A stretch of 51,059 nucleotides of DNA from an uncultured Rhodobacterales bacterium (GTDB lineage Bacteria; Pseudomonadota; Alphaproteobacteria; Rhodospirillales; CAJXLG01): assembly GCA_964535075.1 (NCBI GenBank), contig CAZHRQ010000002.1, forward strand, positions 1 to 51,059, given 5' to 3'. This document shows, piece after piece, positions 2,144 through 47,706 of this stretch (position 1 is the first letter of the stretch; every line of letters starts with the position of its first letter). Made by a program: the position numbers and the translations under genes. The notes under the pieces were generated by a model. That model made no database searches and was not told the DNA's origin. It saw only the letters and a program-made list of their open reading frames with translations.

Positions 2144-2863
2144 TCAATCCTCCTGAGCAATAAGGGTGAAACGGCCCTCACCCGCGCACGCCGTGGCCAG
2201 GGCCCGGGTGTCGTGCAGGTTGAACACGATCAGCGGCAGCGTGGCCTCGCGTGCCAAGGCGATGGCGGTGGTGTCCATCACCTGCAGGTCCTCGCGCAAC
2301 ACATCGGCGTAGGTCAGCCGGTCGTAGCGGGTGGCGCTGGGATCCCGGCGGGGATCGGCGGAATAGACCCCGTCCACCTGCGTGGCCTTCATCACCACGT
2401 CACACTTCAGCTCCGCGGCACGCAACACCGCCGCCGTATCGGTGGTGAAAAAGGGGTTGCCGGTCCCCGCGGCACACAGCACCACCCGTCCCGCGTCCAG
2501 CGCCGCCAGACCGCGGCGGCGGGCATAGGCCTCACACACCCCGTCCATGGGCAGGGCAGAGAGCACCGACGTGGGCACACCGCGCTGTTCCAGGGCCCCC
2601 GCCAGGGCCAGCGCGTTCATCACCGTGGCCAGCATCCCCATATGATCGGCGGTGGCCCGGTCCATACCGGCGGCCGCCCCGGCCACCCCCCGGAAAATGT
2701 TGCCGCCGCCCAGCACCAGCGCCAACTGACGCCCCTGCTGATGAACCACGGCGATCTCCTCGGCCAGCCGGGTGGTGACGCCCGTATCAATGCCATAGGG
2801 CTGGTCCCCCAGCAGACCCTCGCCCGAGAGCTTCACCAGAATGCGGTGATAACCGGCACCCAT
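2144..2863 (-). CDS. pyrH: UMP kinase
   Basis: 239 aa with [16 protein letters not shown] and [12 protein letters not shown] motifs of the amino-acid-kinase-fold UMP kinase. Confidence 0.93.
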
Positions 2864-2923
2864 GCGTTCCCCCTCTGCCCCAATGGCCCGCCCGCCCCGG
2901 CACTGCGAGGCGGGCGTCTGTCT

Positions 2924-3853
2924 TCAGCCCTGACCGGCGGCGGCGGCCACTTCGGCGGCGAAATCGCCCGTTTCCTTTTCGATCCCCTCGCCCAGGGCGA
3001 AGCGCACGAAATCGGTCACGGTCATGGCCACCCCGGCGCTGCTGGCATGGGCCTCCACGGCCTTGCCCACGGTGGTCTCGGAATCGATCACGTAGACCTG
3101 TTCCAGCAGCACCACTTCTTCGTAGAACTTGCGCAGGCGGCCTTCCACCATCTTCTCGATGATGTTTTCCGGCTTGCCCGAGGCCCGCGCCTGTTCCACC
3201 AGCACGTCACGCTCGCGGTCCACCGCCGCGGCATCCAGGTCCTCGCGCCGCGTGGCCTGGGGCGCCGTGGCCGCCACGTGCATGGCCACGTTGCGGCCGA
3301 TCTCTTCCAGCTTGGCGGCATCGCCTTCGGATTCCACCCCCACCAGCACCCCGATCTTCCCCAGACCCGGCACCAATTGGTTGTGGATGTAGGAGGCCAC
3401 CACGCCCTGGGGCACGTCCAGCACGGCCGTGCGGCGCAGGGTCATGTTCTCGCCGATGGTGGCGATCAGCTCGGTGAGCTCCGCCTCCACGGTGCGCCCG
3501 GTGCCAGGGAAGTCCATGGCCTTCAAGGCTTCCAGGTCACCATCGGCCTTCAGGGCCAGACCGGCCACGGTGGTCACGAACCCCTGGAAGGTTTCGTTCC
3601 GGGCCACGAAGTCCGTTTCGGAGTTCACCTCCACCATCGCGCCCCGGGGGCCTTCGACGGCCACGCCCACCAAGCCTTCGGCGGCGGTGCGGCCTGCCTT
3701 CTTGGCGGCGGCGGAGAGACCCTTCTTGCGCAGCCAGTCCACGGCCGCTTCCAGGTCGCCCTCGGTTTCGTTCAGCGCCTTCTTGCAGTCCATCATTCCG
3801 GCGCCGGTCTTCTCGCGCAACTCTTTCACCAGAGAGGCGGAGATCTGAGCCAT
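2924..3853 (-). CDS. tsf: translation elongation factor Ts
   Basis: [27 protein letters not shown] is the EF-Ts N-terminal signature. I moved the start to the ATG at 3853; the ORF-track start at 3883 adds 10 unconserved residues. Confidence 0.93.
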
Positions 3854-3998
3854 GGTATCGTCCCCTTGTTCCACGAAAACCAATCCGGACCCCGCAGGGC
3901 CGTGTCCCCACTGGGGCGTAGTCTATGGCACGGCCGTTCGCCGCGCGCAAACCCAAACGCGGGAGACCGCCCCCAGGGGGCGGCCTCCCACCGGGGGC

Positions 3999-4871
3999 TC
4001 AGCCCTGCTGCTGGGCGTCGGCACCGGCCTCGCCGTCGTTGGCGGCCGGCACGGAGTCTTCGGCCGCTTCCGCGACGGCCTCTTCGGCCGCGCCTTCCTT
4101 GGCCGAGGGAGCTTCGCCCGCCTCTTCCACCACCACCTCGGTGGAATCCTCCAGGGCGCCCAGATCGGTCCCGCTGCGGACCATTTCCTCTTGGATGCCA
4201 TCCAGCACGGCGCCGGACATGAGCTCGCAATAGAGGTCGATGGCGCGCAGGGCGTCATCGTTGCCCGGAATGGGATAGGTGATGCCGGCGGGGTCGGCGT
4301 TGCTGTCGCACACGGCCACCACGGGCACGCCCAGCTTGCGGGCTTCCTGAACGGCGATGTGCTCCTTGACCACGTCCACGATGAACAGGATGTCGGGCAG
4401 GCCGCCCATGTCCTTGATCCCGCCCAGGGTCAGTTCCAGCTTTTCCTGATCCCGTTGCAGGTTGAGCCGTTCCTTCTTGGTCAGACCCGTGGCTTCAGAC
4501 TCCAGACGCTCTTCCAGCTCCCGCAGACGGCGGATGGAATGGGAGACGGTCTTCCAGTTGGTCAGCATGCCACCGAGCCAGCGGTGGTTGACGTAGTACT
4601 GGCCGCACTGACTGGCGGCTTCGGCCATGCGGCCCTGGGCCTGACGCTTGGTACCCACAAACAGCACCCGGCCGCCGGCGGCGGTCACGTCCCGCACGGC
4701 CTGCATGGCGCGGTACAGCAGCGGCACGGTCTGTTGCAGGTCGATGATGTGGATGCCATTGCGCACCCCGAACAGATAGGGCTCCATCCGGGGGTTCCAG
4801 CGACGGGTGTGGTGACCGAAGTGCACGCCGGCTTCCAGCAGCTGGCGCATGGTAAAGGTGGGAAGGGCCAT
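3999..4871 (-). CDS. rpsB: 30S ribosomal protein S2
   Basis: [29 protein letters not shown] is the S2 signature. Start placed at the internal ATG 4871. The protein has an acidic, Ala-rich C-terminal tail. Confidence 0.93.
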
Positions 4872-5264
4872 GATTCGAAACGATCCTTGACGTTTCCGGT
4901 TGATCCGCCACGGGCGCGCCCCGCAAGAAAGCAACGGCCGGCGCGCCATAAGGCGGCCGACCACGCTCAGCTTATCGGGGACCGGAAGAACACCGCCATC
5001 CGCCGGCGGTTGCTGGCCGCCGCATCCCGAGAGGGGACGCCGGCCAGCCCCGGCGGTGGGGGTCCGCGTGAAAGCACGTGCCCGCGTGTGAGGTTGATCC
5101 GGGGTTCATACCCCAATCCCGCGCCCTTGACAAGGCTCCGTGGCGACGGGACAACCGCCCTGCGGCTTTTTCGTTTGCGGCCGACGGCCGGAAGGCTACA
5201 GTCCCGGCCGTCGCCATCCTGTCCGGTCCCCATCATGACCGGCCCCGATCATGGAGAGGGTGTC

Positions 5265-9116: not shown

Positions 9117-9255
9117 TAGAGCCTATCGCGGTCAATGGGACCCAATTCTCGGGTCCCATTGACCGCGTGAATCGGCTCTATCCATTTGTTTTAGAGCGGA
9201 TTCACGCACCCAATCCGGTTCACAGCGTGAACCCGATTGGGTGCGATCCGCTCTA
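9117..9255. repeat. composite palindromic repeat, copy A (module 1 inverted + linker + module 2)
   Basis: Module 1 (9117-9180) is TAGAGCC...GGTCAATGGGACCC-loop-GGGTCCCATTGACC...GGCTCTA. The linker is TCCATTTGTTT. Module 2 (9192-9255) is TAGAGCGGATTCACGCACCCAATC...GATTGGGTGCGATCCGCTCTA. Related copies occur at 7 other sites in the window. Confidence 0.9.

Positions 9256-14162: not shown

Positions 14163-14163
<1 letters not shown>
13375..14163 (-). CDS. fetB: iron export ABC permease-like protein (FetB/YbbM, UPF0014 family)
   Basis: 262-aa polytopic protein resembling YbbM/FetB (LPLINNMSAMGLVFLPGMMTGQILAG). The start ATG at 14163 shares one base with the ligA stop (TAATG). Confidence 0.75.
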
Positions 14164-17956
<3,793 letters not shown>

Positions 17957-17988
17957 GGCCGCGGCCCTTTCTTCTCGGATTCCTGGCC

Positions 17989-18051
17989 TAGAGCGGAGTC
18001 ACGCCGTCAATGGGGCCCGGGAATGGGTCCCATTGACCGCGATAGGCTCTA
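17989..18051. repeat. palindromic repeat, copy B (module 1)
   Basis: TAGAGCGGAGTCACGCCGTCAATGGGGCCCGGGAATGGGTCCCATTGACCGCGATAGGCTCTA. It fills the recN-bamD gap, and its last 3 nt are the bamD stop codon. Confidence 0.9.
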
Positions 18052-18882
18052 GAAGGGCCACCCCAGCCAGGAGCGGGATCCTTCCTCCCGGCCGCCGGGG
18101 TCGCCCACCAGGAGACGATAGCTGTCCTGATACCATTCGCTGCCCGGGAAGTTGTAGCCCAGCACGGCGGCGGCGCGACGGGCTTCCTCGGTCAGACCCA
18201 GGGCCAGATACGCCTCGGTCAGGCGATGCAGCGCCTCGGGCACGTGGCTGGTGGTCTGGTACTGGGTCACCACGTCCTTGAAGCGGTTGATGGCCGCCAG
18301 ATAATACTTGCGCCGGAGGTAAAAGCGGCCGATGTCCATCTGCTTGCCGGCCAGATGGTTTTCGGTCAGGTCCAGCTTCAACCGGGCGTCGCGGGCATAG
18401 GGGGAATCGGGAAAACGGGTGATGACCTGGGTCAGGGCGGCGCGGGCGTCGTCGGTGATTTTCTGGTCCCGGCCCACGTCGGAAATCTGTTCGTAATAGC
18501 ACAGGGCCTTCAGGTAATAGGCATAGGCCACATCCTGGTTGCCGGGATGGAGCCGGATATAGCGGTCCAGGGCCACGATGGCCGAGGTGTAATCGTTGTC
18601 CTGATAATGGGCGTAGGCGGCCATGAGCTGGGCCTTGGTGGCCCACACCGAATAGGGATGCAGCCGCTCCACCTCATCGAACTGGCGGGCGGCTTCCTCG
18701 TACTTACCCCGCTCCAACAGGTCCATGGCCTCGTTGTACAGAGGTGCCACCGGAATTTCCTGGCCGTCGGCGGGGTCCATCGCCGCCGGATCCGGGGTGG
18801 AGGAACAAGCGGCCACCCCCAGCACCAGGGCCAGACCGAGCAGGCGAAGCAGAGTGGGCGGAAGCAGACGACCGTGCAGCAT
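18049..18882 (-). CDS. bamD: outer membrane protein assembly factor BamD
   Basis: TPR lipoprotein with lipobox LGVAAC and BamD/YfiO-like sequence (YYLKALCYYEQI, RFPDSPYARDARLKL). I prefer the ATG at 18882, which gives a 26-aa lipoprotein signal. The ORF-track start at 18912 lies in the tandem repeat. Confidence 0.85.
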   Translation of the reverse strand: MLHGRLLPPTLLRLLGLALVLGVAACSSTPDPAAMDPADGQEIPVAPLYNEAMDLLERGKYEEAARQFDEVERLHPYSVWATKAQLMAAYAHYQDNDYTSAIVALDRYIRLHPGNQDVAYAYYLKALCYYEQISDVGRDQKITDDARAALTQVITRFPDSPYARDARLKLDLTENHLAGKQMDIGRFYLRRKYYLAAINRFKDVVTQYQTTSHVPEALHRLTEAYLALGLTEEARRAAAVLGYNFPGSEWYQDSYRLLVGDPGGREEGSRSWLGWPF

Positions 18883-18900
18883 GGACCATCCATTGGAGTT

Positions 18901-18990
18901 GCAGGGCCGCATTGGGCTGCGGCTGGGGTTTCAGGGCCGCATTGGGCTGCGGCTGGGGTTTCAGGGCCGCATTGGGCCGAGGCTGGGAAC
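18901..18990. repeat. 30-bp tandem repeat, about 3 copies
   Basis: (G/T)CAGGGCCGCATTGGGCTGCGGCTGGGGTT occurs at 18901-18930 and 18931-18960, differing at one base. A degenerate third copy lies at 18961-18990. The array is immediately upstream of bamD. Confidence 0.9.
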
Positions 18991-19132: not shown

Positions 19133-19196
19133 TAGAGCGGAGTCACGCGGTCAATGGGACCCGAGAATGGGTTCCCATTGACCGCGATAGGCTCTA
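19133..19196. repeat. palindromic repeat, copy C (module 1)
   Basis: TAGAGCGGAGTCACGCGGTCAATGGGACCCGAGAATGGGTTCCCATTGACCGCGATAGGCTCTA. By hand alignment it matches the copy at 36857-36920 at 61 of 64 positions in the same orientation. Confidence 0.9.
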
Positions 19197-20854: not shown

Positions 20855-21208
20855 TTACGCCGCGGAGACCACGGCCAGGGTATCGCTGCGCCGCCAACTG
20901 GTCCCGTCGGAAAAGGCCAGACAGGCGGCGCCGGCGGCGCCGTCGTCGCACAGCACCACCCCCGCGTGATGGCTGGACGCCGGCGGCAACGTGGCCACGG
21001 TATAGCGCGGCGCGTCATAGATGCCTTCCGCCCCGTCGGTGGTGGCCGGGGTTCCGTCGGCGCGCGCCAGGGCGAAACCGCCGGCGGTGGTGCCGTCGTG
21101 CACCACCAGGGTCTGACGATCGGTATCCACCGTCACCTCGCGCGCGGCACCGGTGAAGGAGGCATGGGTGGCGGTGGTGCCGCCGCGCAACTGCAACACA
21201 TCGGGCAT
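20855..21208 (-). CDS. phage tail-fibre-like protein with Mtd/HylP-type N-terminal motif
   Basis: The N-terminus LQLRGGTTATHASFTGAAREVTVDTDRQTLVVHDGTTAGG resembles the QLRRGT...GE..vDTD...k.GDG motif of phage tail-fibre and major-tropism-determinant N-termini. The start shares a base with the upstream stop. Confidence 0.6.
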   Translation of the reverse strand: MPDVLQLRGGTTATHASFTGAAREVTVDTDRQTLVVHDGTTAGGFALARADGTPATTDGAEGIYDAPRYTVATLPPASSHHAGVVLCDDGAAGAACLAFSDGTSWRRSDTLAVVSAA

Positions 21209-22179
21209 CAGGTCAGTCCTCCCAGATCATGGCGGGTGGCCCCCCGGGCCAGGTCCACCTGGCGCAGCCGGCTCCCCTCGCCGGCAAAGACGGGGGTAGG
21301 CGGGGTCAGGGGCCCCAGATCGGTCAAAACGGCGGGACCGAGCGCGGTCGCCCCCTCCACATAACGTTCCCACTTGTCGCCAGCGAAGGGACTACCGGCG
21401 GTGTGGGCGGTGAGACAGTGGTAGCCGTGGCCGCCGGGCCCCACCACCACGTCGCCTTCGGCATAGGTCGCCCCGGGCTGCCAATCGCCCCGGGGCACAG
21501 TGAGGCCGGGCGCCCCCTGCGGCCCCTGGGGTCCACTGGCACCGGCCACCGCGATCTGCCAGCCCTCGGCATCGCCGGCCCCCGGCGTTTCGGTGACCGC
21601 CACCGTGAGCCACCACACGCCATCCCCGTCCGCCGCAAAGTCGGTCACGGTTCCGCCCAGGCTCAGGGTACCGTCGTCGCTCACCGCCTGTACCCCGGCG
21701 CCCGGGACGAAGGGGGCGCCCGACGGCACCTCGAACACGGCCGGATCGTCGGTGGCCGCCACGACGGAGGGCGACGGCACCCGGGCGCCGCCGAATAGCT
21801 GCCACGCCCCCAGACGCTGATCGGTCCACCACCACGGCGCGGCCGTGTGTTCGCTCAGGCACAGGAAAGGCACGCCGTTCACCCGCACCAGATCTTGGGG
21901 TTGGTAAAGCTGGCCACTCACCCAGTCCCCCCGGGGCGCCAGGCGGGTGGCCGGCAGGGCGAAGGTGCCGTAGTGGGTGCCCTGACTGCCCCAGATGTCC
22001 ATGGCGGCGCCGGTGACGGTGATGGTCTCGATGGACTCGCCGGTGAAGGAAAGGTCCTGCAGGGCCTCCACGGCCTGCTTCACGGCCCACCAGTTGCCGT
22101 CGATTTCCGCCACGGTCAGCGGCGTCCCCTTGCCGGCCCCCCAGGCCCCGGCATCGCGAAAGGTCAAGGTCACGGGCAT
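21208..22179 (-). CDS. phage tail fibre / receptor-binding protein with two CBM5/12-like repeats
   Basis: Two copies of PRGDW..G..Y...D.V...G..(Y/F).CL..HT resemble carbohydrate-binding module 5/12. There is also a short collagen-like GPQGPQGAPG stretch. Confidence 0.6.
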   Translation of the reverse strand: MPVTLTFRDAGAWGAGKGTPLTVAEIDGNWWAVKQAVEALQDLSFTGESIETITVTGAAMDIWGSQGTHYGTFALPATRLAPRGDWVSGQLYQPQDLVRVNGVPFLCLSEHTAAPWWWTDQRLGAWQLFGGARVPSPSVVAATDDPAVFEVPSGAPFVPGAGVQAVSDDGTLSLGGTVTDFAADGDGVWWLTVAVTETPGAGDAEGWQIAVAGASGPQGPQGAPGLTVPRGDWQPGATYAEGDVVVGPGGHGYHCLTAHTAGSPFAGDKWERYVEGATALGPAVLTDLGPLTPPTPVFAGEGSRLRQVDLARGATRHDLGGLT

Positions 22180-29191: not shown

Positions 29192-29271
29192 GCTCTAAAA
29201 CAAACAGATAGAGCCGATTCACGCGGTCAATGGGCCCCGCAAATGGGTCCCATTAACCGTGATCAGCTCCA
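29192..29271. repeat. palindromic repeat, copy D (module-2 end + linker + module 1) inside the phage operon
   Basis: GCTCTAAAACAAACAGATAGAGCCGATTCACGCGGTCAATGGGCCCCGCAAATGGGTCCCATTAACCGTGATCAGCTCCA. It fills nearly all of the 98-nt gap between two phage genes. Confidence 0.85.
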
Positions 29272-31246: not shown

Positions 31247-31311
31247 GTCAGGGTCTCCTTATGAAAATCGCAAGCACTTGGGCGCCAGAGGCCGGTTCCG
31301 GGAGCGGACGA

Positions 31312-31827: not shown

Positions 31828-33207
31828 TCAGGCGGTCCGGTCGGACTCGTCGGCGGGTTCGTCGGGCAGGCGCCCGCCCCGCCGCAGGTTCCAGGCCAGC
31901 ACCGAGTGGTCGAAGGCGCCGGCGCGCCACGCCTCGGTCAGGTCGCGCACGGCCTCGGGGCTGAGGGTGGCCTGGGTGAAATCGAGATTGGGCTCCACAC
32001 GTACCCGGGCGGGATCCTCGCCCAGCCAGCGGGCGGCGTGGCCCAGGGCCTGTTCCAAGGCCGCGGCCGTGGTCCGGGCCACGTCGGTGAGGCTCACGGT
32101 CTGGGCGGTGCTGCGCAGGCGCAGGGCCTCGGCGCTTTCCACGCCCCGTCCGCCCTCCAACAGCCGGGCCCCCATCTGCCACGCCTGGTCGTAGAGATCG
32201 CGGATGGCCTGCCGGTGGGCTTCGATGCCCTGGCCGTCCACTTCCAGGTAGAAAGCGCGGGCCTCGGGCGGCAGATACCAGATGGTGCTGGCGCCGATCT
32301 GTTCCGGCAGGCCGTCCTGGTTGTTCTCCACCCCGGCGATCACCGGCGTGGGCTGGGACGTGAGGAACAGCGCCTGCTTGTAGTCGGCGGACAGGCGATA
32401 GATGCGCAGGGCGATACGGGCCAGGGGCAGCAGGGGAATACGATCCGGCGCCGGGGTCAGGTCGGTGGCACCGGCGAAGACGAAGGGCAGCGCCCCCAGC
32501 CCGCCCGGATGCACGGGTCCCTCCCCGGTCAGGGCCGACGCCGGGGAACCGGCCCTTGCGGCCAAGGAACGGGGCTCGGGCCCCGGTCCGGCGGCCTGGG
32601 GCGGACTGCGCCACAGCCATTGGGTATAGCGGCCGTCCTCCAGGGACAGCACCCGCCACTGGGGCCGGATCACGTGGCCGAAGGGAGAGTGTCCGGGGCC
32701 ATCCACCTCCTCCCGCAACACCACCAGTTCCGGCACGGCGCCGCGCAGGCGCCAGTTGATCACGGCCTCGGCGGCATAGTCGGCCAGATAGAGCCCCTCG
32801 CCGTCGCCGGCCGGCCCCTCCACCAACAGCCCGTGACGGCCGGTAAGCAGCACGTTGCGGGTGATCCGGCGGTGCAGATCGGCCAGGGACAGGCCGTCGG
32901 GGGTGGCCTGGCGGCGCAGGGGCTCCAGGGCCGACGGCAGGGTGATGGTGGCCGGCTGGCGATGGATCAACCCCACGCAGGAATCCAGGGTCAACCGCAC
33001 CAGATCGGGAAAATCGGCCCGCAGACGATAAGCCTGATAGTCGGCATTGCGACCGGGGTCGGCCTCTTCCAGGCGCTGGCCCGGAGTCATGGGCAGGTAC
33101 AGGTCGCCCCGGGCCTTGATGGCGCTTTCCCCCTCCAGGCAGTCGCGCATGGTCTGCCAGTCGCCCAGGCGCTGGGCGGCCTGGGGGTGATACTGATCCA
33201 CCGACAT
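31828..33207 (-). CDS. phage portal protein (DUF4055-like)
   Basis: 459 aa immediately after terL (TGAATG junction). The N-terminal region ...YLPMTPGQ...YQAYRLRADFPDLVRLTLDSCVGLIHRQP resembles DUF4055-type portals. Confidence 0.7.
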   Translation of the reverse strand: MSVDQYHPQAAQRLGDWQTMRDCLEGESAIKARGDLYLPMTPGQRLEEADPGRNADYQAYRLRADFPDLVRLTLDSCVGLIHRQPATITLPSALEPLRRQATPDGLSLADLHRRITRNVLLTGRHGLLVEGPAGDGEGLYLADYAAEAVINWRLRGAVPELVVLREEVDGPGHSPFGHVIRPQWRVLSLEDGRYTQWLWRSPPQAAGPGPEPRSLAARAGSPASALTGEGPVHPGGLGALPFVFAGATDLTPAPDRIPLLPLARIALRIYRLSADYKQALFLTSQPTPVIAGVENNQDGLPEQIGASTIWYLPPEARAFYLEVDGQGIEAHRQAIRDLYDQAWQMGARLLEGGRGVESAEALRLRSTAQTVSLTDVARTTAAALEQALGHAARWLGEDPARVRVEPNLDFTQATLSPEAVRDLTEAWRAGAFDHSVLAWNLRRGGRLPDEPADESDRTA

Positions 33208-34554
33208 TCAATACACTCCCTTGATCCGGGCCTGTCCGGCGCGCGGGGTCTCCGGCGCCAGGAAACGAAAGGCGGCGGCCAGGGCATCCACCTGGTCGTC
33301 GTGGGCGCCCTTGGGAAAGGCTTCCAGTTCCCGCAGGAAGGGTTCGTTCCACGGACCGGCCACCAGGGCGAGGTTGCCCGCTTCCGCCTGGGCGGAGACG
33401 GGGGCGGCGCGCGCCTCCTTGGCGCCCTGTTCGGGACGGGCGCGCACCGTGAAGCCGGCCAGGGCGGCGGCCAGCCAGCGGGCCTGTGCCACCCCGGCCT
33501 GACCGGGATCCCGGGGCAGCACCACCGGCACCGCCACGCCATCGCTGGCGGCCACCCGCCGCAGGGCGGTTTCCACCTCCGCCGGCGAGCCCTGGAAACG
33601 TTCCACGTGCTCCACGGTGAAGCGGCCGGACTCATCCCGGGCCAGCCGCACCCCCACCGTCCAGTCGCCCCCGTCCCGGGTGGCGGCCAGATCCCAGGCC
33701 CGCACCCGCCGGGCGGTGACGGGGGCCTCGGACACGGTTGCCAGGAAACGGCGTTGGAAGTAGAGCCCCTGCGCCGGCCGCACATGCCAGTTGCCGCCCT
33801 TCAGCCGCTCCCGCTCCACCCGGGGCAGGGCATCCAGGTTGGCCAGATAGCCCGGGTCCTTGCGCAGCAGGATGCGGTTGTCGAACACGCTGGCGGCGAT
33901 GAAGGTCAGGGATTTGGGCCGGGTATCGGGGCCAAAGCGCTGCACCAGGGTTTCCGGCCGGTCGGCCCACACCAGATCGTCCTCATGCCGCACGAACCAG
34001 CGCAGGCGCCCGGCCCGTTCCGGCACGGGATAGCCGTCCTCGCCGATCCACCAGGCAATGAGTCGGGCCACGAAGCTGTCGGGATCGGGGTTGCACGTCG
34101 CCCGCACATAGGGCCGCACCCCGCAGGCACTGCGATTGCGGCCCAGCAGATAGAAAAACTGGCCCTCGGAAAAATGGGTCAGCTCGTCGAAGCCCAGCAA
34201 CGGGATCTGCGCGCCCTGCCAGTCATAACGGGTGCGCTCGTGCTCCAAGTGCGCGAACTTAACCCGGCTGCCGGCGGGAAAACGCCACTCCAGCAGGCTT
34301 TCCCGGGGGGTGCCTCCCAGGGGTGCATAGAGCCGGGCGCTTTCGTCCCACAGCCCCCCCTCGTTGCGTACCTGCACGGCGGTGCGGCGGAAAATCACGG
34401 CCCCGAACCCGGGATGGGCGGCGTGGCGCAGGGGTTCGGCCAGCAGCGCCCACGACTTGCCGCCACCGGCCGCCCCGCCATAGATGGCGATATCGGCGGC
34501 GCTGGCCAAGAAGCGTTCCTGCGGCCCCGGTTGCGGCCGCAGCCCGCCGCTCAT
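33208..34554 (-). CDS. terL: phage terminase large subunit
   Basis: Walker A IYGGAAGGGKSW, Walker B-like LLGFDELTHF, and a C-terminal nuclease region (DLAAT ... DDQVDALAAAF). The start ATG at 34554 forms an ATGA overlap with terS. Confidence 0.9.
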   Translation of the reverse strand: MSGGLRPQPGPQERFLASAADIAIYGGAAGGGKSWALLAEPLRHAAHPGFGAVIFRRTAVQVRNEGGLWDESARLYAPLGGTPRESLLEWRFPAGSRVKFAHLEHERTRYDWQGAQIPLLGFDELTHFSEGQFFYLLGRNRSACGVRPYVRATCNPDPDSFVARLIAWWIGEDGYPVPERAGRLRWFVRHEDDLVWADRPETLVQRFGPDTRPKSLTFIAASVFDNRILLRKDPGYLANLDALPRVERERLKGGNWHVRPAQGLYFQRRFLATVSEAPVTARRVRAWDLAATRDGGDWTVGVRLARDESGRFTVEHVERFQGSPAEVETALRRVAASDGVAVPVVLPRDPGQAGVAQARWLAAALAGFTVRARPEQGAKEARAAPVSAQAEAGNLALVAGPWNEPFLRELEAFPKGAHDDQVDALAAAFRFLAPETPRAGQARIKGVY

Positions 34555-35087
34555 GCCTCGTCCTCCCCGTCCTCTGTATCCCCGTCCTCTGTGTCCCCGT
34601 TCGGCATGGACCGTCCGTTGTCCGGCAGATAGAGAGTGACGGCCAGGTCCGCCGTCTCGTCGGCGGCCCCGGGACCCTCGAACAGGCCCAGATGCCGGCT
34701 GAGGCAATCCAGCGCGCCCTTCTTATCGTGCAGTTTTACGGTGACGGCATCGCGGCCCCGGCGCACTTCGGCCACGGCGGCGGCGGCATCGGCGTCCAGG
34801 TCCTCGCTGGGCAGGGGCACCACCGACTCGCCATCCCAGCGGCACACCTGCCGCAGATCGGCATAGGCCAGGCGGGCGTATTCCCGCAGCACCCGATCGG
34901 CGGTGATGCCGGTGCGGCGGCTTTGTTCCGCCCGGGCCGCCGCCAGGGCGGCGCGAATGTCGGCGCGTTGCAGCAAGCGCGGCCCTGTGCGCCCGGCATA
35001 GCCTGCCCGGCGGGCGGCGGCGGCCGCGTTATGGTCCACGAGAAACTCTTCCACAAACCGGCGATGCCGGGATGTCAGGCCGTCCAT
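34551..35087 (-). CDS. terS: phage terminase small subunit
   Basis: RHRRFVEEFLVDHNAAAAARRAGYA ... ITADRVLREYARLAYAD ... DKKGALDCLSRHLGLF is Terminase_2-like. GGGAG lies upstream of the ATG at 35087. Confidence 0.85.
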   Translation of the reverse strand: MDGLTSRHRRFVEEFLVDHNAAAAARRAGYAGRTGPRLLQRADIRAALAAARAEQSRRTGITADRVLREYARLAYADLRQVCRWDGESVVPLPSEDLDADAAAAVAEVRRGRDAVTVKLHDKKGALDCLSRHLGLFEGPGAADETADLAVTLYLPDNGRSMPNGDTEDGDTEDGEDEA

Positions 35088-35217: not shown

Positions 35218-35242
35218 ACTTCGTTGAGGGCGGATCGCCCAT

Positions 35243-35278
35243 AAAAACCCCCCCGGCGGCGATCCGTCGGGGGGGGGG
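35243..35278 (-). terminator. rho-independent terminator between the 203-aa gene and terS
   Basis: On the minus strand a C-run/G-run stem (CCCCCCCGACGG ... CCGCCGGGGGGG, one mismatch) is followed by TTTTTAT. Confidence 0.7.
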
Positions 35279-35338
35279 TGTGGTGGGCGGCGTTTGGCGG
35301 GAAGCGGCGCGCCGCCACCCAGGCTCATCGTAGTAAAA

Positions 35339-35383
35339 GAGATACGCTAATTGCCCCCGCCCTGTCAAGAACAAAAACAGAAC
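35339..35383 (-). promoter_or_regulatory. SOS-box-like GAAC-N7-GAAC (35369-35383) abutting a candidate promoter (TTGACA 35368-35363, N18, TATCTC 35344-35339)
   Basis: The plus strand reads aGAACaaaaacaGAACatt. On the minus strand this is GTTC-N7-GTTC, immediately followed by TTGACA. Confidence 0.45.
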
Positions 35384-35410
35384 ATTCAGGGCGCGCCAAA
35401 CGCCTTGCGT

Positions 35411-36022
35411 TCAGGCTGCCTTCCAGCCCCGCACGTGGCAGTAGGCATTCAGGGCGCGGAACAGCTCCCGACGGGCCCAGCCCTTGCGACGGGCCTGGGC
35501 CCTGTCCATCATGGACAGGCTTTCCCCTCGCACCATGAGCGCCACCACCACGTCGTGGGCGATGCCCTGGGCCTGGCACCGTTCCACCCAGGCCACCCAG
35601 TGGGCCCGCTGGCGGGGGTTCACCGTCTCCAACGGGGTTCCGGTGTGGGCGCGATGGGTCACCGGCATTCCGTCGTAGGCGCTCACCCGGGTGCTGACCG
35701 GCCGCAGCAACCGCTCGGCACACTCGCCCAGGGTGGTCAGGGCCCGTTCCTGGTCGGGGTCCAGGGCCCGCCACAGGCGGGCATCCACCCGGCGGCGGCG
35801 CACCTTCTCCGCCTCGCGGGAGTCGCCAAGGAGCACCACCCGCTCCGTGGGGTGATGGGCTTCCTGCCAAGCGGCGGGAGAGCGGTGGGTGTGGCACCAG
35901 CGGTCCCGCTCCGCCTGCAAACGGGCCTGGAGACCCTTGCTGTGGGCCAGCGCCTCCCGGGCCTCCCACGAGGGATGGGCGGGGTCGAACGCTGGGGTGC
36001 AGTCTCTTCTGGATGCGGGCAT
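35411..36022 (-). CDS. phage regulatory protein candidate (203 aa; possible late-gene activator or antiterminator)
   Basis: The ATG at 36022 is preceded by AAGGAG at 8 nt. It is the only gene between the repressor and the structural operon. The C-terminus (GESLSMMDRAQARRKGWARRELFRALNAY) looks like an HTH or sigma-region-4-like helix pair. Confidence 0.5.
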   Translation of the reverse strand: MPASRRDCTPAFDPAHPSWEAREALAHSKGLQARLQAERDRWCHTHRSPAAWQEAHHPTERVVLLGDSREAEKVRRRRVDARLWRALDPDQERALTTLGECAERLLRPVSTRVSAYDGMPVTHRAHTGTPLETVNPRQRAHWVAWVERCQAQGIAHDVVVALMVRGESLSMMDRAQARRKGWARRELFRALNAYCHVRGWKAA

Positions 36023-36046
36023 GGCCAACACTCCTTATGCGTGCCA

Positions 36047-36090
36047 GAACATTATGAGAACACTATGCCGCATGATTACGTTTTTCGCAA
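36047..36090 (-). promoter_or_regulatory. SOS-box-like GAAC-N7-GAAC (36047-36061) overlapping a candidate leftward early promoter (TTGCGA-N17-CATAGT)
   Basis: AGAACATTATG and AGAACACTATG form a tandem 11-bp repeat. On the minus strand the -35 TTGCGA is at 36090-36085 and the -10 CATAGT at 36067-36062. Confidence 0.5.
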
Positions 36091-36126
36091 TATCGCTGGC
36101 GCGCCGGATTAGCGAAAATCGCATGC

Positions 36127-36816
36127 ATGATGGAACAGCCCTGGATCGCCCAACGGCTGGAGACTCTGGGACGCACCCGGCGGGAGCTGGCCCGCGCCCT
36201 GGGGGTGGATCCGGCCCGAATCAGCGAGATCCTCGCGGGACGCCGCCATGTGAAGGTGCGGGAGGTTCCGGCCCTGGCCCGCTTCCTGGACATGGATGCG
36301 GGGGTGGTGCTGTTGCGCCTGAACGGGGAGGCACCGGCCGCACCGCCGCCCACGGTGACGGTGCCGGTGGTGGGGGCGGTTCAGGCCGGCGCGTGGGCGG
36401 AGGCCATGACCTGGCCGCCGGAGGACCGATACCCGGTGGTGGTGCCACCGCCGCACGGGGGGCGGGAACCGTTTGGCCTGGTGGTCCGGGGCCAGTCCAT
36501 GAATCTGGACTACCCGGAGGGGACCATCCTGATCTGCGTGCCTTTTCTCCACTACGCCCGGACCATTGGCGAGGGAGACCATGTGGTGGTGCACCGCCGC
36601 GACCGTACCGGGTTGATGGAGGCAACGGTGAAGGCGCTGGTGATCGACTCGGCGGGGCACCGCTGGCTGTGTCCCCGTTCCAGCGACCCTGCCCACCAGA
36701 CGCCGCTGCCGCTGCCGGCCACGCCCCCGGATGCCCAGGACCACGCCGGCAACGACGACATTCAGGTGGTGGGGGTGGTGGTGGCCCACTACCGGGCCCA
36801 TCCCTCCGCCCCCTGA
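36127..36816 (+). CDS. phage CI/LexA-like repressor (XRE HTH + S24 peptidase)
   Basis: N-terminal HTH (RRELARALGVDPARISEILAGRR), a candidate Ala-Gly self-cleavage site (AVQAGAW), the catalytic Ser in VVRGQSM and the Lys in TVKAL. It is divergent from the 203-aa gene. Confidence 0.88.
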   Translation: MMEQPWIAQRLETLGRTRRELARALGVDPARISEILAGRRHVKVREVPALARFLDMDAGVVLLRLNGEAPAAPPPTVTVPVVGAVQAGAWAEAMTWPPEDRYPVVVPPPHGGREPFGLVVRGQSMNLDYPEGTILICVPFLHYARTIGEGDHVVVHRRDRTGLMEATVKALVIDSAGHRWLCPRSSDPAHQTPLPLPATPPDAQDHAGNDDIQVVGVVVAHYRAHPSAP

Positions 36817-36830
36817 TCCCCACGGAGGGG

Positions 36831-36920
36831 CGTGAATCGGCTCTAAATCAAATAGATAGAGCCGATTCACGCGGTCAATGGGACCCGAGAATGGGGTCCC
36901 ATTGACCGCGATAGGCTCTA
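36831..36920. repeat. palindromic repeat, copy F (module fragment + linker + module 1)
   Basis: CGTGAATCGGCTCTA + AATCAAATAGA + TAGAGCCGATTCACGCGGTCAATGGGACCCGAGAATGGGGTCCCATTGACCGCGATAGGCTCTA. Its last 3 nt are the hemJ stop codon. Confidence 0.9.
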
Positions 36921-41973: not shown

Positions 41974-43377
41974 TCAGAAATGGATGGCCCGGCCGTAGGC
42001 GTCAAGGACCGATTCGTGCATCATTTCCGAAAGGGTGGGGTGGGGGAACACCGTTTCCATCAGTTCGGCCTCGGTGGTTTCCAGGGTTTGCCCCACGGCA
42101 TAGCCCTGGATCATTTCCGTTACCTCCGCGCCGATCATGTGGGCGCCCAGCAGCTCGCCGGTGCGGGCATCGAACACGGTCTTGACCATGCCTTCGGTAT
42201 CGCCCAGGGCCACCGCCTTGCCGTTGCCCACGAAGGGGAAGTGGCCCACCTTGATGTGGTGGCCGCGCTCCTTGGCCTGGGGCTCGGTGAGGCCCAGGCT
42301 GGCCACCTGGGGATGGCAATAGGTGCAGCCGGGGACCCGGTTGGGGTCCAGGGGATGGGGCTGACCGCCGGCGATGGCCTCGGCGCAGATCACACCCTCG
42401 TGGCTGGCCTTGTGGGCGAGCCACGGCGGCGCCACCAGATCGCCGATGGCATAGAGCCCCTGAACGCTGGTGCGCAACAGCCCGTCCACCACCACGTGGC
42501 CCCGGTCCAGGGTCACGCCCAGATCTTCCAGGCCCAGATCCTCGGAATTGGCGGTGATGCCCACGGCGGACAGCACCCGTTCCACGGTCACCTGCTGCGA
42601 GGCGCTGTTGGCCGCCACCGTGGCGGTGACGCTGTTCGCCCCCTTGTCCAGCTTGGTGACCTTGGCGCCGGTGAGGAAGCGAATGCCCTGTTTTTCCAGC
42701 GCCTTGCGCGCCATGTCGGAGATTTCCGGGTCTTCCACCGGCAGAATGCGGTCCACCACCTCCACCACCGTGACCTCGGTGCCAAAGGTATTGAAGAAGC
42801 TGGCGAACTCGATCCCGATGGCGCCAGAGCCCACCACCAGCAGCGACTTGGGCAGGCTTTCGGACACCAGCGCGTGCTTGTAGGTCCACACCTGCTTGCC
42901 ATCGGCCTCCAGGCCGGGCAGTTCCCGGGCCCGGGCGCCGGTGGCCAGGATGATGTGGGCGGCGGCGAGATCGGCGGTGGCGTTGCCATCGCCATCGGTC
43001 ACCACCACCTTGCCGGCGCCGTTGAGCCGGCCCCGGCCGTCGAACACGGTGACCTTGTTCTTTTTCAGCAGATGCTTGACTCCGCCCGAGAGCCGCCGCG
43101 CCACGGAGCGGGAGCGCTTGACCATGGCGGCCAGATCAAAGGTGGCGGTGCCGTCGATGCCCAGGCCGAAATTCTTGGCCTCCCGCATCAGCCGGTATAC
43201 GTCGGCCGAGCGCAGCAGGGCCTTGGTGGGAATGCAACCCCAGTTGAGGCAGATGCCCCCCAGGTGTTCCCGTTCCACCAAGGCGGTGTTGAGCCCGAGC
43301 TGAGCGGCCCGGATGGCGGCCACGTAGCCGCCGGGCCCGCCCCCGATCACCACCACGTCAAAGGTCTGCTGCGCCAT
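41974..43377 (-). CDS. lpdA: dihydrolipoyl dehydrogenase (E3)
   Basis: GGGPGGY FAD motif, redox-active LNWGCIPTK, and C-terminal HAHPT-like FPHPTLSE. Confidence 0.93.
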   Translation of the reverse strand: MAQQTFDVVVIGGGPGGYVAAIRAAQLGLNTALVEREHLGGICLNWGCIPTKALLRSADVYRLMREAKNFGLGIDGTATFDLAAMVKRSRSVARRLSGGVKHLLKKNKVTVFDGRGRLNGAGKVVVTDGDGNATADLAAAHIILATGARARELPGLEADGKQVWTYKHALVSESLPKSLLVVGSGAIGIEFASFFNTFGTEVTVVEVVDRILPVEDPEISDMARKALEKQGIRFLTGAKVTKLDKGANSVTATVAANSASQQVTVERVLSAVGITANSEDLGLEDLGVTLDRGHVVVDGLLRTSVQGLYAIGDLVAPPWLAHKASHEGVICAEAIAGGQPHPLDPNRVPGCTYCHPQVASLGLTEPQAKERGHHIKVGHFPFVGNGKAVALGDTEGMVKTVFDARTGELLGAHMIGAEVTEMIQGYAVGQTLETTEAELMETVFPHPTLSEMMHESVLDAYGRAIHF

Positions 43378-47565: not shown

Positions 47566-47706
47566 AGAGCGGGTCGCGCCCCATCGGGGTCACGCGGTGA
47601 CCCGGATGGGGCGCGTGAATCCGTTCTAAAACAAATGGATAGAGCCGAATCTCGCCGTCAATGGGACCCCAAAAATGGATCCCATTGATGACCGCGATAG
47701 GCTCTA
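47566..47706. repeat. composite palindromic repeat, copy G (module 2-like + linker + module 1)
   Basis: Module 2-like arm is AGAGCGGGTCGCGCCCCATCGGGGTCACGCGGTGACCCGGATGGGGCGCGTGAATCCGTTCTA. The linker is AAACAAATGGA. Module 1 is TAGAGCCGAATCTCGCCGTCAATGGGACCCC...GATCCCATTGATGACCGCGATAGGCTCTA. Confidence 0.85.

Follow-up and report, generated by a model that had tools for sequence, protein, structure and literature searches.

The window considered here, a stretch of 51,059 nucleotides that makes up the start of contig CAZHRQ010000002.1 from an uncultured bacterium, harbors a phage-like cluster of particle genes, and the control regions of this cluster contain two short direct repeats that resemble the operator of the SOS repressor LexA. 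All genes of the cluster lie on the minus strand, with the exception of that for a CI-like repressor of 229 residues (36127-36816, plus strand), in which an HTH_3 domain and a Peptidase_S24 domain are recognized through matches to Pfam and PHROG. Next to it is found the gene for a protein of 203 residues (35411-36022), here called the 203-aa regulator, whose ATG is preceded at a distance of 8 nt by the ribosome-binding site AAGGAG (36036-36031). The two genes are separated by 104 bp (36023-36126), the length that had been given in an earlier, sequence-only reading of this DNA. The first of the late genes is terS (34551-35087), followed by terL (33208-34707) and the portal gene (31828-33207), and thereafter by scaffold, capsid, head-closure, and tail-fiber genes that extend to about 20.5 kb, all of them identified by Pfam and PHROG matches. 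The particle gene families identified are only generic terminase, portal, capsid, and tail-fiber types, and no integrase, replication, or lysis gene was recognized in the cluster.

The first of the two repeats, box 1, is located at 36047-36061 within the region between the repressor and the 203-aa regulator gene, and the second, box 2, at 35369-35383, beyond the end of the latter. On the plus strand the sequence is GAACAAAAACAGAAC at 35369-35383 and GAACATTATGAGAAC at 36047-36061, whereas on the minus strand, which is the strand of the 203-aa regulator gene, box 1 reads GTTCTCATAATGTTC and box 2 reads GTTCTGTTTTTGTTC. The sequence-only reading had described both as GAAC-N7-GAAC, and at both places the match is exact; these are also the only two exact occurrences of GAAC-N7-GAAC or GTTC-N7-GTTC on either strand of the window. 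Both can be written more fully as AGAACA-N5-AGAACA, and four of the 19 copies of AGAACA in the window, counted over both strands, make up these two 11-bp-spaced pairs. The remaining copies, among them those at 4987, 37539, and 39798, are without a partner, as had been noted for a few of them. Box 1 also falls within the 11-bp tandem repeat reported previously (AGAACATTATG/AGAACACTATG, at 36046-36067). Box 2 lies where it had been placed, after the stop codon of the 203-aa regulator gene, but at a distance of 27 nt past the TGA (35411-35413) rather than 28. A direct repeat of GTTC-N7-GTTC is the established LexA motif of the alphaproteobacteria (PMC3323433; PMC12700426), and both boxes are predicted to be LexA-like operators.

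The number of bare 8-base cores is weak evidence when taken alone, since dinucleotide shuffles of the whole window contain on average 0.83 core matches and 20 of 100 such shuffles reach two. A more discriminating measure is provided by a position matrix constructed from 32 LexA boxes of Caulobacter crescentus with peak heights from chromatin immunoprecipitation sequencing (S6 table, PMC12700426). With this matrix, which may not be that of the host, both boxes score 23.1 bits, against a median of 20.4 and a minimum of 14.8 for the training sites; the next-best 15-mer in the window attains 12.4 bits, and none of 200 shuffles attains 23.1. The spacer supplies around 7 bits of the score of each box, and the match to the LexA matrix therefore extends past the GAAC cores, which bears out, spacer preferences included, the earlier claim that the boxes match the alphaproteobacterial operator. 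When each intergenic segment is shuffled separately, so that the local AT-richness is kept, the probability of finding two or more exact cores is 0.0095, and two sites of at least 20 bits are obtained in none of 2000 shuffles. Sites of at least 19 bits number two in 539 kb of alphaproteobacterial DNA that had been fetched for another purpose and zero in 826 kb from other phyla, giving a background frequency of strong LexA-like sites of at most 0.4 per 100 kb. The observation of two boxes is thus confirmed as real and non-random.

Both boxes are intergenic and are found flush with hexamers that can be read as promoter elements, CATAGT as a -10 in the case of box 1 and TTGACA as a -35 in the case of box 2. 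The putative promoter of the 203-aa regulator gene (36062-36090, minus strand) is composed, by eye, of a -35 TTGCGA (36090-36085), a 17-nt spacer, and a -10 CATAGT (36067-36062), the same leftward candidate that had been proposed from the letters; box 1 starts right after the -10 and would span about -6 to +9 of the promoter. The putative late promoter (35339-35368, minus strand), likewise assigned by eye, consists of a -35 TTGACA (35368-35363), which does adjoin box 2 on the minus strand as claimed, an 18-nt spacer, and a -10 TATCTC (35344-35339). Its leader is predicted to fold into two hairpins, the second of which (35275-35248) is followed by UUUUU. This second structure, an intrinsic-terminator-like hairpin with its U-tract (35241-35275, minus strand) that is supported by RNA folding, a hairpin finder, and the inverted repeats I15/I19, is placed between the late promoter and terS. 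Rfam gave no match in the window. A perfect 11-nt inverted repeat, GGCGTTTGGCG / CGCCAAACGCC at 35289-35299 and 35394-35404, flanks box 2 together with the late promoter, and one of its arms belongs to the first of the two leader hairpins. Chance may account for this repeat, or it may form an alternative structure in read-through transcripts.

The closest homologues of the 203-aa regulator, reached through exact-sequence look-ups, are encoded in the loci L288 (46% identity) and L289/L290 (42% identity). In L288 the end of the homologous gene reads TGA-ggac-GTTCCGTTTTTGTTC-TTGACG-N17-TATACG-TTTTACCAC, and is followed by a hairpin and then by a terS homologue. Of the 15 bases of box 2, 14 are kept along with the -35, despite the 46% protein identity and the diverged flanks. 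L288 and the window can be aligned over the box and its -35, over parts of the spacer, and over the -10 with the bases transcribed first (TTTTAC.AC.AT). At the other promoter it is the -35/operator part that can be aligned. In a more distant family member, L278, a box of 22.8 bits is found in the divergent region between the family gene and an S24 repressor, although this repressor is only 25% identical to that of the window and has a different helix-turn-helix (HTH); with respect to the family gene, the L278 box points the opposite way.

The combination of a box with a directly abutting -35 element, hereafter the box/-35 cassette, also recurs outside this family. Among 80 relatives of TerL, it is present in L057 (GTTCTGTTTACGTTC-TTGATC) and L059 (GTTCTTTTTATGTTC-TTGATC), in both cases right after an unrelated gene for a 252-aa protein and ahead of the late region. 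Most of the TerL relatives (L002-L081) have no boxes, and the box is therefore not a trait of the TerL lineage; in the Rhizobium phage whose TerL is nearest, terS is not preceded by a cassette. A pattern scan of IMG/VR for the cassette returned 77 matches, from which those on low-GC contigs were discarded, as they look like chance occurrences. A strong bias at the free positions is seen in the 17 distinct matches on contigs whose GC content is 0.55 or more, with TT in 11 of 17 and a C after TTGA in 12 of 17. Within the high-GC loci examined, the cassette is found just past the end of the preceding gene and 5' of portal, terS/terL, protease-capsid, or endolysin genes. The genes that adjoin the cassette are unrelated ones, such as those for the 252-aa protein, an RES toxin, and a membrane protein. 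A search with the profile of the 203-aa family detected no member in any locus with the box/-35 cassette. The association of the cassette with unrelated genes, in loci that lack the 203-aa family, points to a shared host factor, and a shared host protein explains the distribution better than any single phage protein does.

Several further features of these contigs may be recorded. Four of them, L231, L244, L195, and L188, have between four and six strong LexA-like boxes each within about 12 kb; most of these lie between genes and point in the direction of the gene that follows (portal, capsid, small membrane proteins), and around half are fused to TTGAC. In L231, L195, L224, L213, L219, L184, and L057, a short conserved motif, (G)TTGCGCC or GGTGCGCC, is found repeatedly in the sequence transcribed first after the cassette, approximately 40-50 nt past the -35 but only 8 nt past it in L057. 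In L057 there are also a gene for a GcrA-like protein and two unannotated cargo genes between the box/-35 promoter and terS (604-1230 and 2351-4660). Two viral contigs of the TerL lineage contain short open reading frames (L061:1265-1468 and L031:1816-2013) with similarity to the N-terminal DNA-binding domain of LexA, one being 57% identical to a Rhizobium-type LexA sequence and the other 39% identical to the LexA of E. coli; they may be phage LexA mimics.

The S24 repressor appears to have operators of its own. Its DNA-binding domain is an XRE-type HTH_3 and not the winged helix of LexA, and pairwise alignments show that it has the Ala-Gly, Ser, and Lys motifs; in an exact-sequence look-up its sole match was a Logan contig of 1.7 kb. 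Motif scanning reveals two candidate operators of the type TTGCG-W5-CGCAA. One, TTACGTTTTTCGCAA (36076-36090), is a pseudo-palindrome that covers the -35 of the 203-aa regulator promoter, and the other, TAGCGAAAATCGCAT (36110-36124), is located just 5' of the repressor start codon and forms the partner arm of inverted repeat I10. The control region of L288 also has 15-bp palindromes of this type, at positions 10 and 45, and that of L289 has them at 2871, 2915, and 2949. An alternative candidate, GCGA-N3-TCGC, proved to be no commoner than chance and was abandoned; comparison of the window with L288 and L289 yielded the longer motif instead. In L289/L290 the divergent S24 repressor is 63% identical to that of the window, with a near-identical HTH, and yet the control region has no LexA-like site above 13 bits although its three palindromes are kept. 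The GAAC box does not, then, accompany repressors with the same recognition helix, and the palindromes are predicted to be the operators of the S24 repressor, with the GAAC boxes being something else. A further operator-like sequence, TTATGAAAATCGCAA (31259-31273), with two mismatches to the repressor palindrome, occupies part of the short intergenic stretch that separates the scaffold gene from the capsid gene. Both L289:2073-3582 and L290 contain the pair of repressor and 203-aa-family gene alone, followed by a convergent host histidine kinase gene and no late genes, which suggests either a remnant or two regulatory genes that function on their own.

With respect to the 203-aa regulator itself, searches of Pfam, PHROG, and PDB sequences were empty, no Pfam match was found among 40 members of its family, and a word-index search with the protein returned only itself. 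The family nonetheless comprises 165 representatives at E<=1e-3. The AlphaFold2 model is a confident one (predicted local distance difference test of 86), and a fold search with it produced only weak matches, resembling sigma region 4 or KorA, all with E>1. Homology to Q or to other antiterminators was likewise not apparent, with neither a Pfam, PHROG, or PDB sequence match nor a fold match below that value, and DUF6456, the domain of GafA-type proteins, was detected in neither the 203-aa protein nor 39 relatives. An alignment of 40 family sequences was too divergent for scanning of the loci, and one of ten sequences was used instead. In most of around 45 family loci, the stop codon of the family gene overlaps a TGACA -35-like hexamer, and a terminator-like hairpin comes next in about half of ten loci examined. 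The arrangement in the window, with the regulator gene directly 5' of the late promoter and a terminator in the leader, has the layout of the lambda Q module, and several family loci are similar. Because of this layout of family gene, late promoter, and terminator, the data suggest that the family acts as late activators or Q-like antiterminators. A strong box is found in only three of the roughly 45 family loci, namely the window, L288, and L278; the position of box 2 is shared by the window and L288 only, and that of the divergent-region box by the window and L278 only.

Taken together, the match to the LexA matrix, the position at putative promoters, the conservation of box 2, the recurrence of the cassette, the distinct operators of the repressor, and the alphaproteobacterial look of the host make host LexA the best explanation, and we put the probability that boxes 1 and 2 are operators for the host LexA of an alphaproteobacterium at roughly 0.6. 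The sequence features, with their statistics and conservation, are observed directly; which protein binds the boxes, in which direction it regulates, and what the 203-aa regulator does we infer as follows. In the uninduced state, LexA on box 1 would cover the -10-proximal region and the start site of the 203-aa regulator promoter, which would also be guarded by the CI-like S24 repressor through the palindrome over its -35, while LexA on box 2 would lie immediately beside the -35 of the late promoter. Once DNA is damaged, activated RecA would induce LexA and the S24 repressor alike to cleave themselves. Synthesis of the 203-aa protein could then begin, and the protein would act at the freed late promoter, probably by carrying RNA polymerase through the leader terminator, and expression of the terS, terL, portal, capsid, and tail genes would follow. 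If LexA does bind, particle production is tied to DNA damage at two levels, that of the regulator gene and that of the packaging and structural operon, with the cleavable repressor of the element as a further lock.

A number of points weigh against this assignment. The consensus promoter scanner called no promoter at either box and so detected neither of the putative promoters, which is why their hexamers were assigned by eye; in the case of the 203-aa regulator promoter, the lack of a call is explained by its agreement with the sigma-70 consensus at only 8 of 12 positions. The motif matrix is that of Caulobacter, and the promoters of the host's own lexA, recA, and uvrA lie outside the DNA that was compared. 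No LexA-like site precedes the recN gene within the window. In L288, the closest relative, box 1 has not been kept, and only one half-site is left. A direct repeat that abuts a -35 is also a classic site for an activator, and the contigs with four to six co-oriented boxes could represent a class of activator-dependent promoters.

It is this last consideration that gives rise to the main rival explanation, in which the direct repeats are sites for an activator encoded by the element. For this part the 203-aa protein suggests itself: bound to box 1 it would shut down its own promoter, and from box 2 it would switch on the late promoter, in the manner of lambda CII or of pyocin PrtN, whose repeats lie by the -35. 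Box 2 is indeed where class II-type activators bind, the protein contains HTH-like helices that weakly resemble sigma region 4, its gene is immediately 5' of the late promoter, and box 2 occurs in both the window and its closest homologue, L288. However, the boxes do not travel with the family, given their presence at the box 2 position in two loci, and in the divergent region in two, out of about 45, and most family stop codons overlap the -35 and leave no room for an intergenic site upstream. The cassette is, moreover, also found by unrelated genes in loci without a family member, the L278 box is oriented oppositely with respect to the family gene, and one would have to put the agreement with the LexA matrix, which takes in the spacer, down to coincidence. 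We consider this explanation unlikely. A related possibility is that another host factor, such as a winged-helix response regulator, reads the 11-bp-spaced direct repeats and responds to a signal other than DNA damage. Response regulators of the CtrA type (TTAA-N7-TTAA) use the same repeat geometry by -35 elements and control gene transfer agents, and the occurrence of many co-oriented boxes on some contigs would be in keeping with such a factor. Yet the half-site here is GTTC and not TTAA, it matches no response-regulator motif of which we are aware, and the full 15-mer outscores the median genuine LexA site in the matrix, which together render this option improbable.

The sequence-only reading had also allowed that the element's own S24 repressor might bind the GAAC boxes. 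Its gene adjoins box 1 and repressors of the S24 type are cleaved upon DNA damage, such that the outcome would be the same, but the idea does not survive comparison of the loci. The repressor has an HTH_3 rather than a LexA-type domain; palindromic operators of a different sequence are conserved in the window, L288, and L289; and the L278 box lies beside a repressor with a different HTH. The 63%-identical repressor with its near-identical HTH in L289/L290 keeps the palindromes with no site above 13 bits nearby. The S24 repressor of the window is excluded as the GAAC binder, and we regard its involvement as barely credible. That the boxes have no regulatory role, representing T-rich flanks akin to UP elements or chance in AT-rich intergenic DNA, would accord with the non-significant core count in whole-window shuffles and with the spacer of box 2, which is a T-tract just upstream of the -35. 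It is very improbable in view of the shuffles that keep local composition (P = 0.0095 for two cores and 0/2000 for two strong matrix sites), the background of at most 0.4 sites per 100 kb, and the conservation of box 2 in L288.

A broader form of the LexA explanation can also be envisaged, in which host LexA, by way of a portable cassette, GTTCTCTTTTTGTTC-TTGAC, would exert direct and overriding repression on the morphogenesis promoters of a wide set of alphaproteobacterial phage-like elements. The compact element in the window, with no visible integrase, replication, or lysis genes and with host REP-like palindromes inside it, would then be a domesticated, SOS-triggered particle producer akin to a gene transfer agent (GTA) or a tailocin. 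Some elements have four to six such promoters, with one before almost every structural gene or operon. We offer this wider proposal tentatively, and consider it rather doubtful as a whole; if true, it would provide the direct link from LexA to particle production that is missing for RcGTA, the GTA of Rhodobacter capsulatus. Direct control of prophage genes by LexA is well known in the gammaproteobacteria and the Firmicutes, and our search found little literature on such control in alphaproteobacterial phages; for GTAs, the connection with the SOS response is so far described as indirect. On the LexA reading, the element would join the known kind of LexA-controlled prophage-like elements, with a familiar wiring in a new element. 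The recurrent late-promoter cassette is the more interesting lead, and together with the 203-aa regulator family it offers a way into the question of how high-GC phages time their late expression.

Parallels can be drawn with several systems. In the filamentous phage CTX-phi of Vibrio cholerae, a host LexA site and operators for the phage repressor RstR share the rstA promoter, and induction requires that both be lost (PMC3323433). The putative 203-aa regulator promoter would be similarly arranged, since a candidate repressor operator overlaps its -35 and a LexA-like box lies where transcription would start. The window differs in that its motif is the alphaproteobacterial direct repeat and not the gammaproteobacterial palindrome, its repressor is itself of the self-cleaving S24 type, it has a second box on the putative late (packaging) promoter, and its cluster is of the tailed-phage kind. 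In RcGTA, production depends on the SOS regulator, and the activator GafA has sigma-like HTH features; the effect of LexA is reported to be an indirect one, exerted through cckA, with no description of an operator at the promoter of the particle genes (PMC9638019). The window likewise contains an alphaproteobacterial phage-like particle cluster, with a predicted link to the SOS regulator. The resemblance does not extend to the activators, since GafA homologues are DUF6456 proteins and neither the 203-aa protein nor any of 39 relatives matches that domain.

LexA-type boxes at both the early and the late promoters of a small temperate element are also found in the Bacillus phage GIL01, where LexA acts with gp7 at the early promoters and the LexA-like gp6 acts at the late promoter P3. 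In contrast to GIL01, the window has no gene for a gp7- or gp6-like protein or for a LexA domain, it has its own CI-like repressor, and both the phylum and the motif are different. The R- and F-pyocins of Pseudomonas are governed by a cascade in which the RecA-sensitive S24 repressor PrtR controls the small activator PrtN, which in turn acts on the structural genes through P-boxes. The window shares with them a compact particle cluster without visible replication or integration genes and an order of S24 repressor, small regulator gene, and structural genes, although the 203-aa protein has no detectable similarity to known families and the repeat equals a LexA operator, whereas that of the pyocins is an activator box. 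The likeness to the lambda Q/PR'/tR' module lies in the regulator gene directly 5' of the late promoter, the terminator in a short leader before the packaging genes, and the conservation between the window and L288 of parts of the promoter spacer and of the initial transcribed sequence. The 203-aa protein has neither sequence nor significant fold similarity to Q proteins, its role in antitermination is putative, and unlike PR' the putative late promoter of the window has a LexA-like site.

The host looks to be an alphaproteobacterium. The best matches to its pckA product are in metagenome-assembled genomes assigned to Rhodovibrionaceae, "Alphaproteobacteria," Geminicoccaceae, and Reyranella, all at no more than 65% identity, which indicates a lineage without a close sequenced relative among the reference genomes. 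NCBIfam names within the window include a pyruvate dehydrogenase E1-beta subunit whose N terminus bears a lipoyl domain, an E2 of the mito type, and a short prolyl-tRNA synthetase, all of which are typical of alphaproteobacteria, and the nearest cultured TerL relatives are Rhizobium phages. When LexA and RecA sequences were used as tblastn queries against the fetched loci, neither lexA nor recA of the host was detected.

Finally, some minor features of the window deserve mention. The tail-fiber genes at 20855-22179 contain Mtd_N (major tropism determinant) and CBM_5_12 domains, and no reverse transcriptase was seen nearby. A 98-nt tRNA-Ala(GGC) called by ARAGORN at 42264-42361 (plus strand) lies inside a minus-strand dihydrolipoyl dehydrogenase gene, has no counterpart in Rfam, and is probably spurious. 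Beside the cluster (14163-18912), bamD, recN, and ligA of the host stand in a row. A repeat of approximately 50 bp at 19143 and 36867 was considered as a pair of attachment sites, attL and attR, but it is a dispersed palindrome of the repetitive extragenic palindromic (REP) type that occurs in six places, one of them inside the cluster, and no att sites are therefore identified. This palindrome, CGCGGTCAATGGGA-N13-TCCCATTGACCGCG, is found at 9127-9167, 18002-18041, 19146-19186, 29222-29261, 36870-36910, and 47653-47666; its copies are intergenic, with one inside the phage-like cluster and two flanking it. This distribution, along with the host-like GC content of the cluster, hints that the cluster is an old resident of the host genome.

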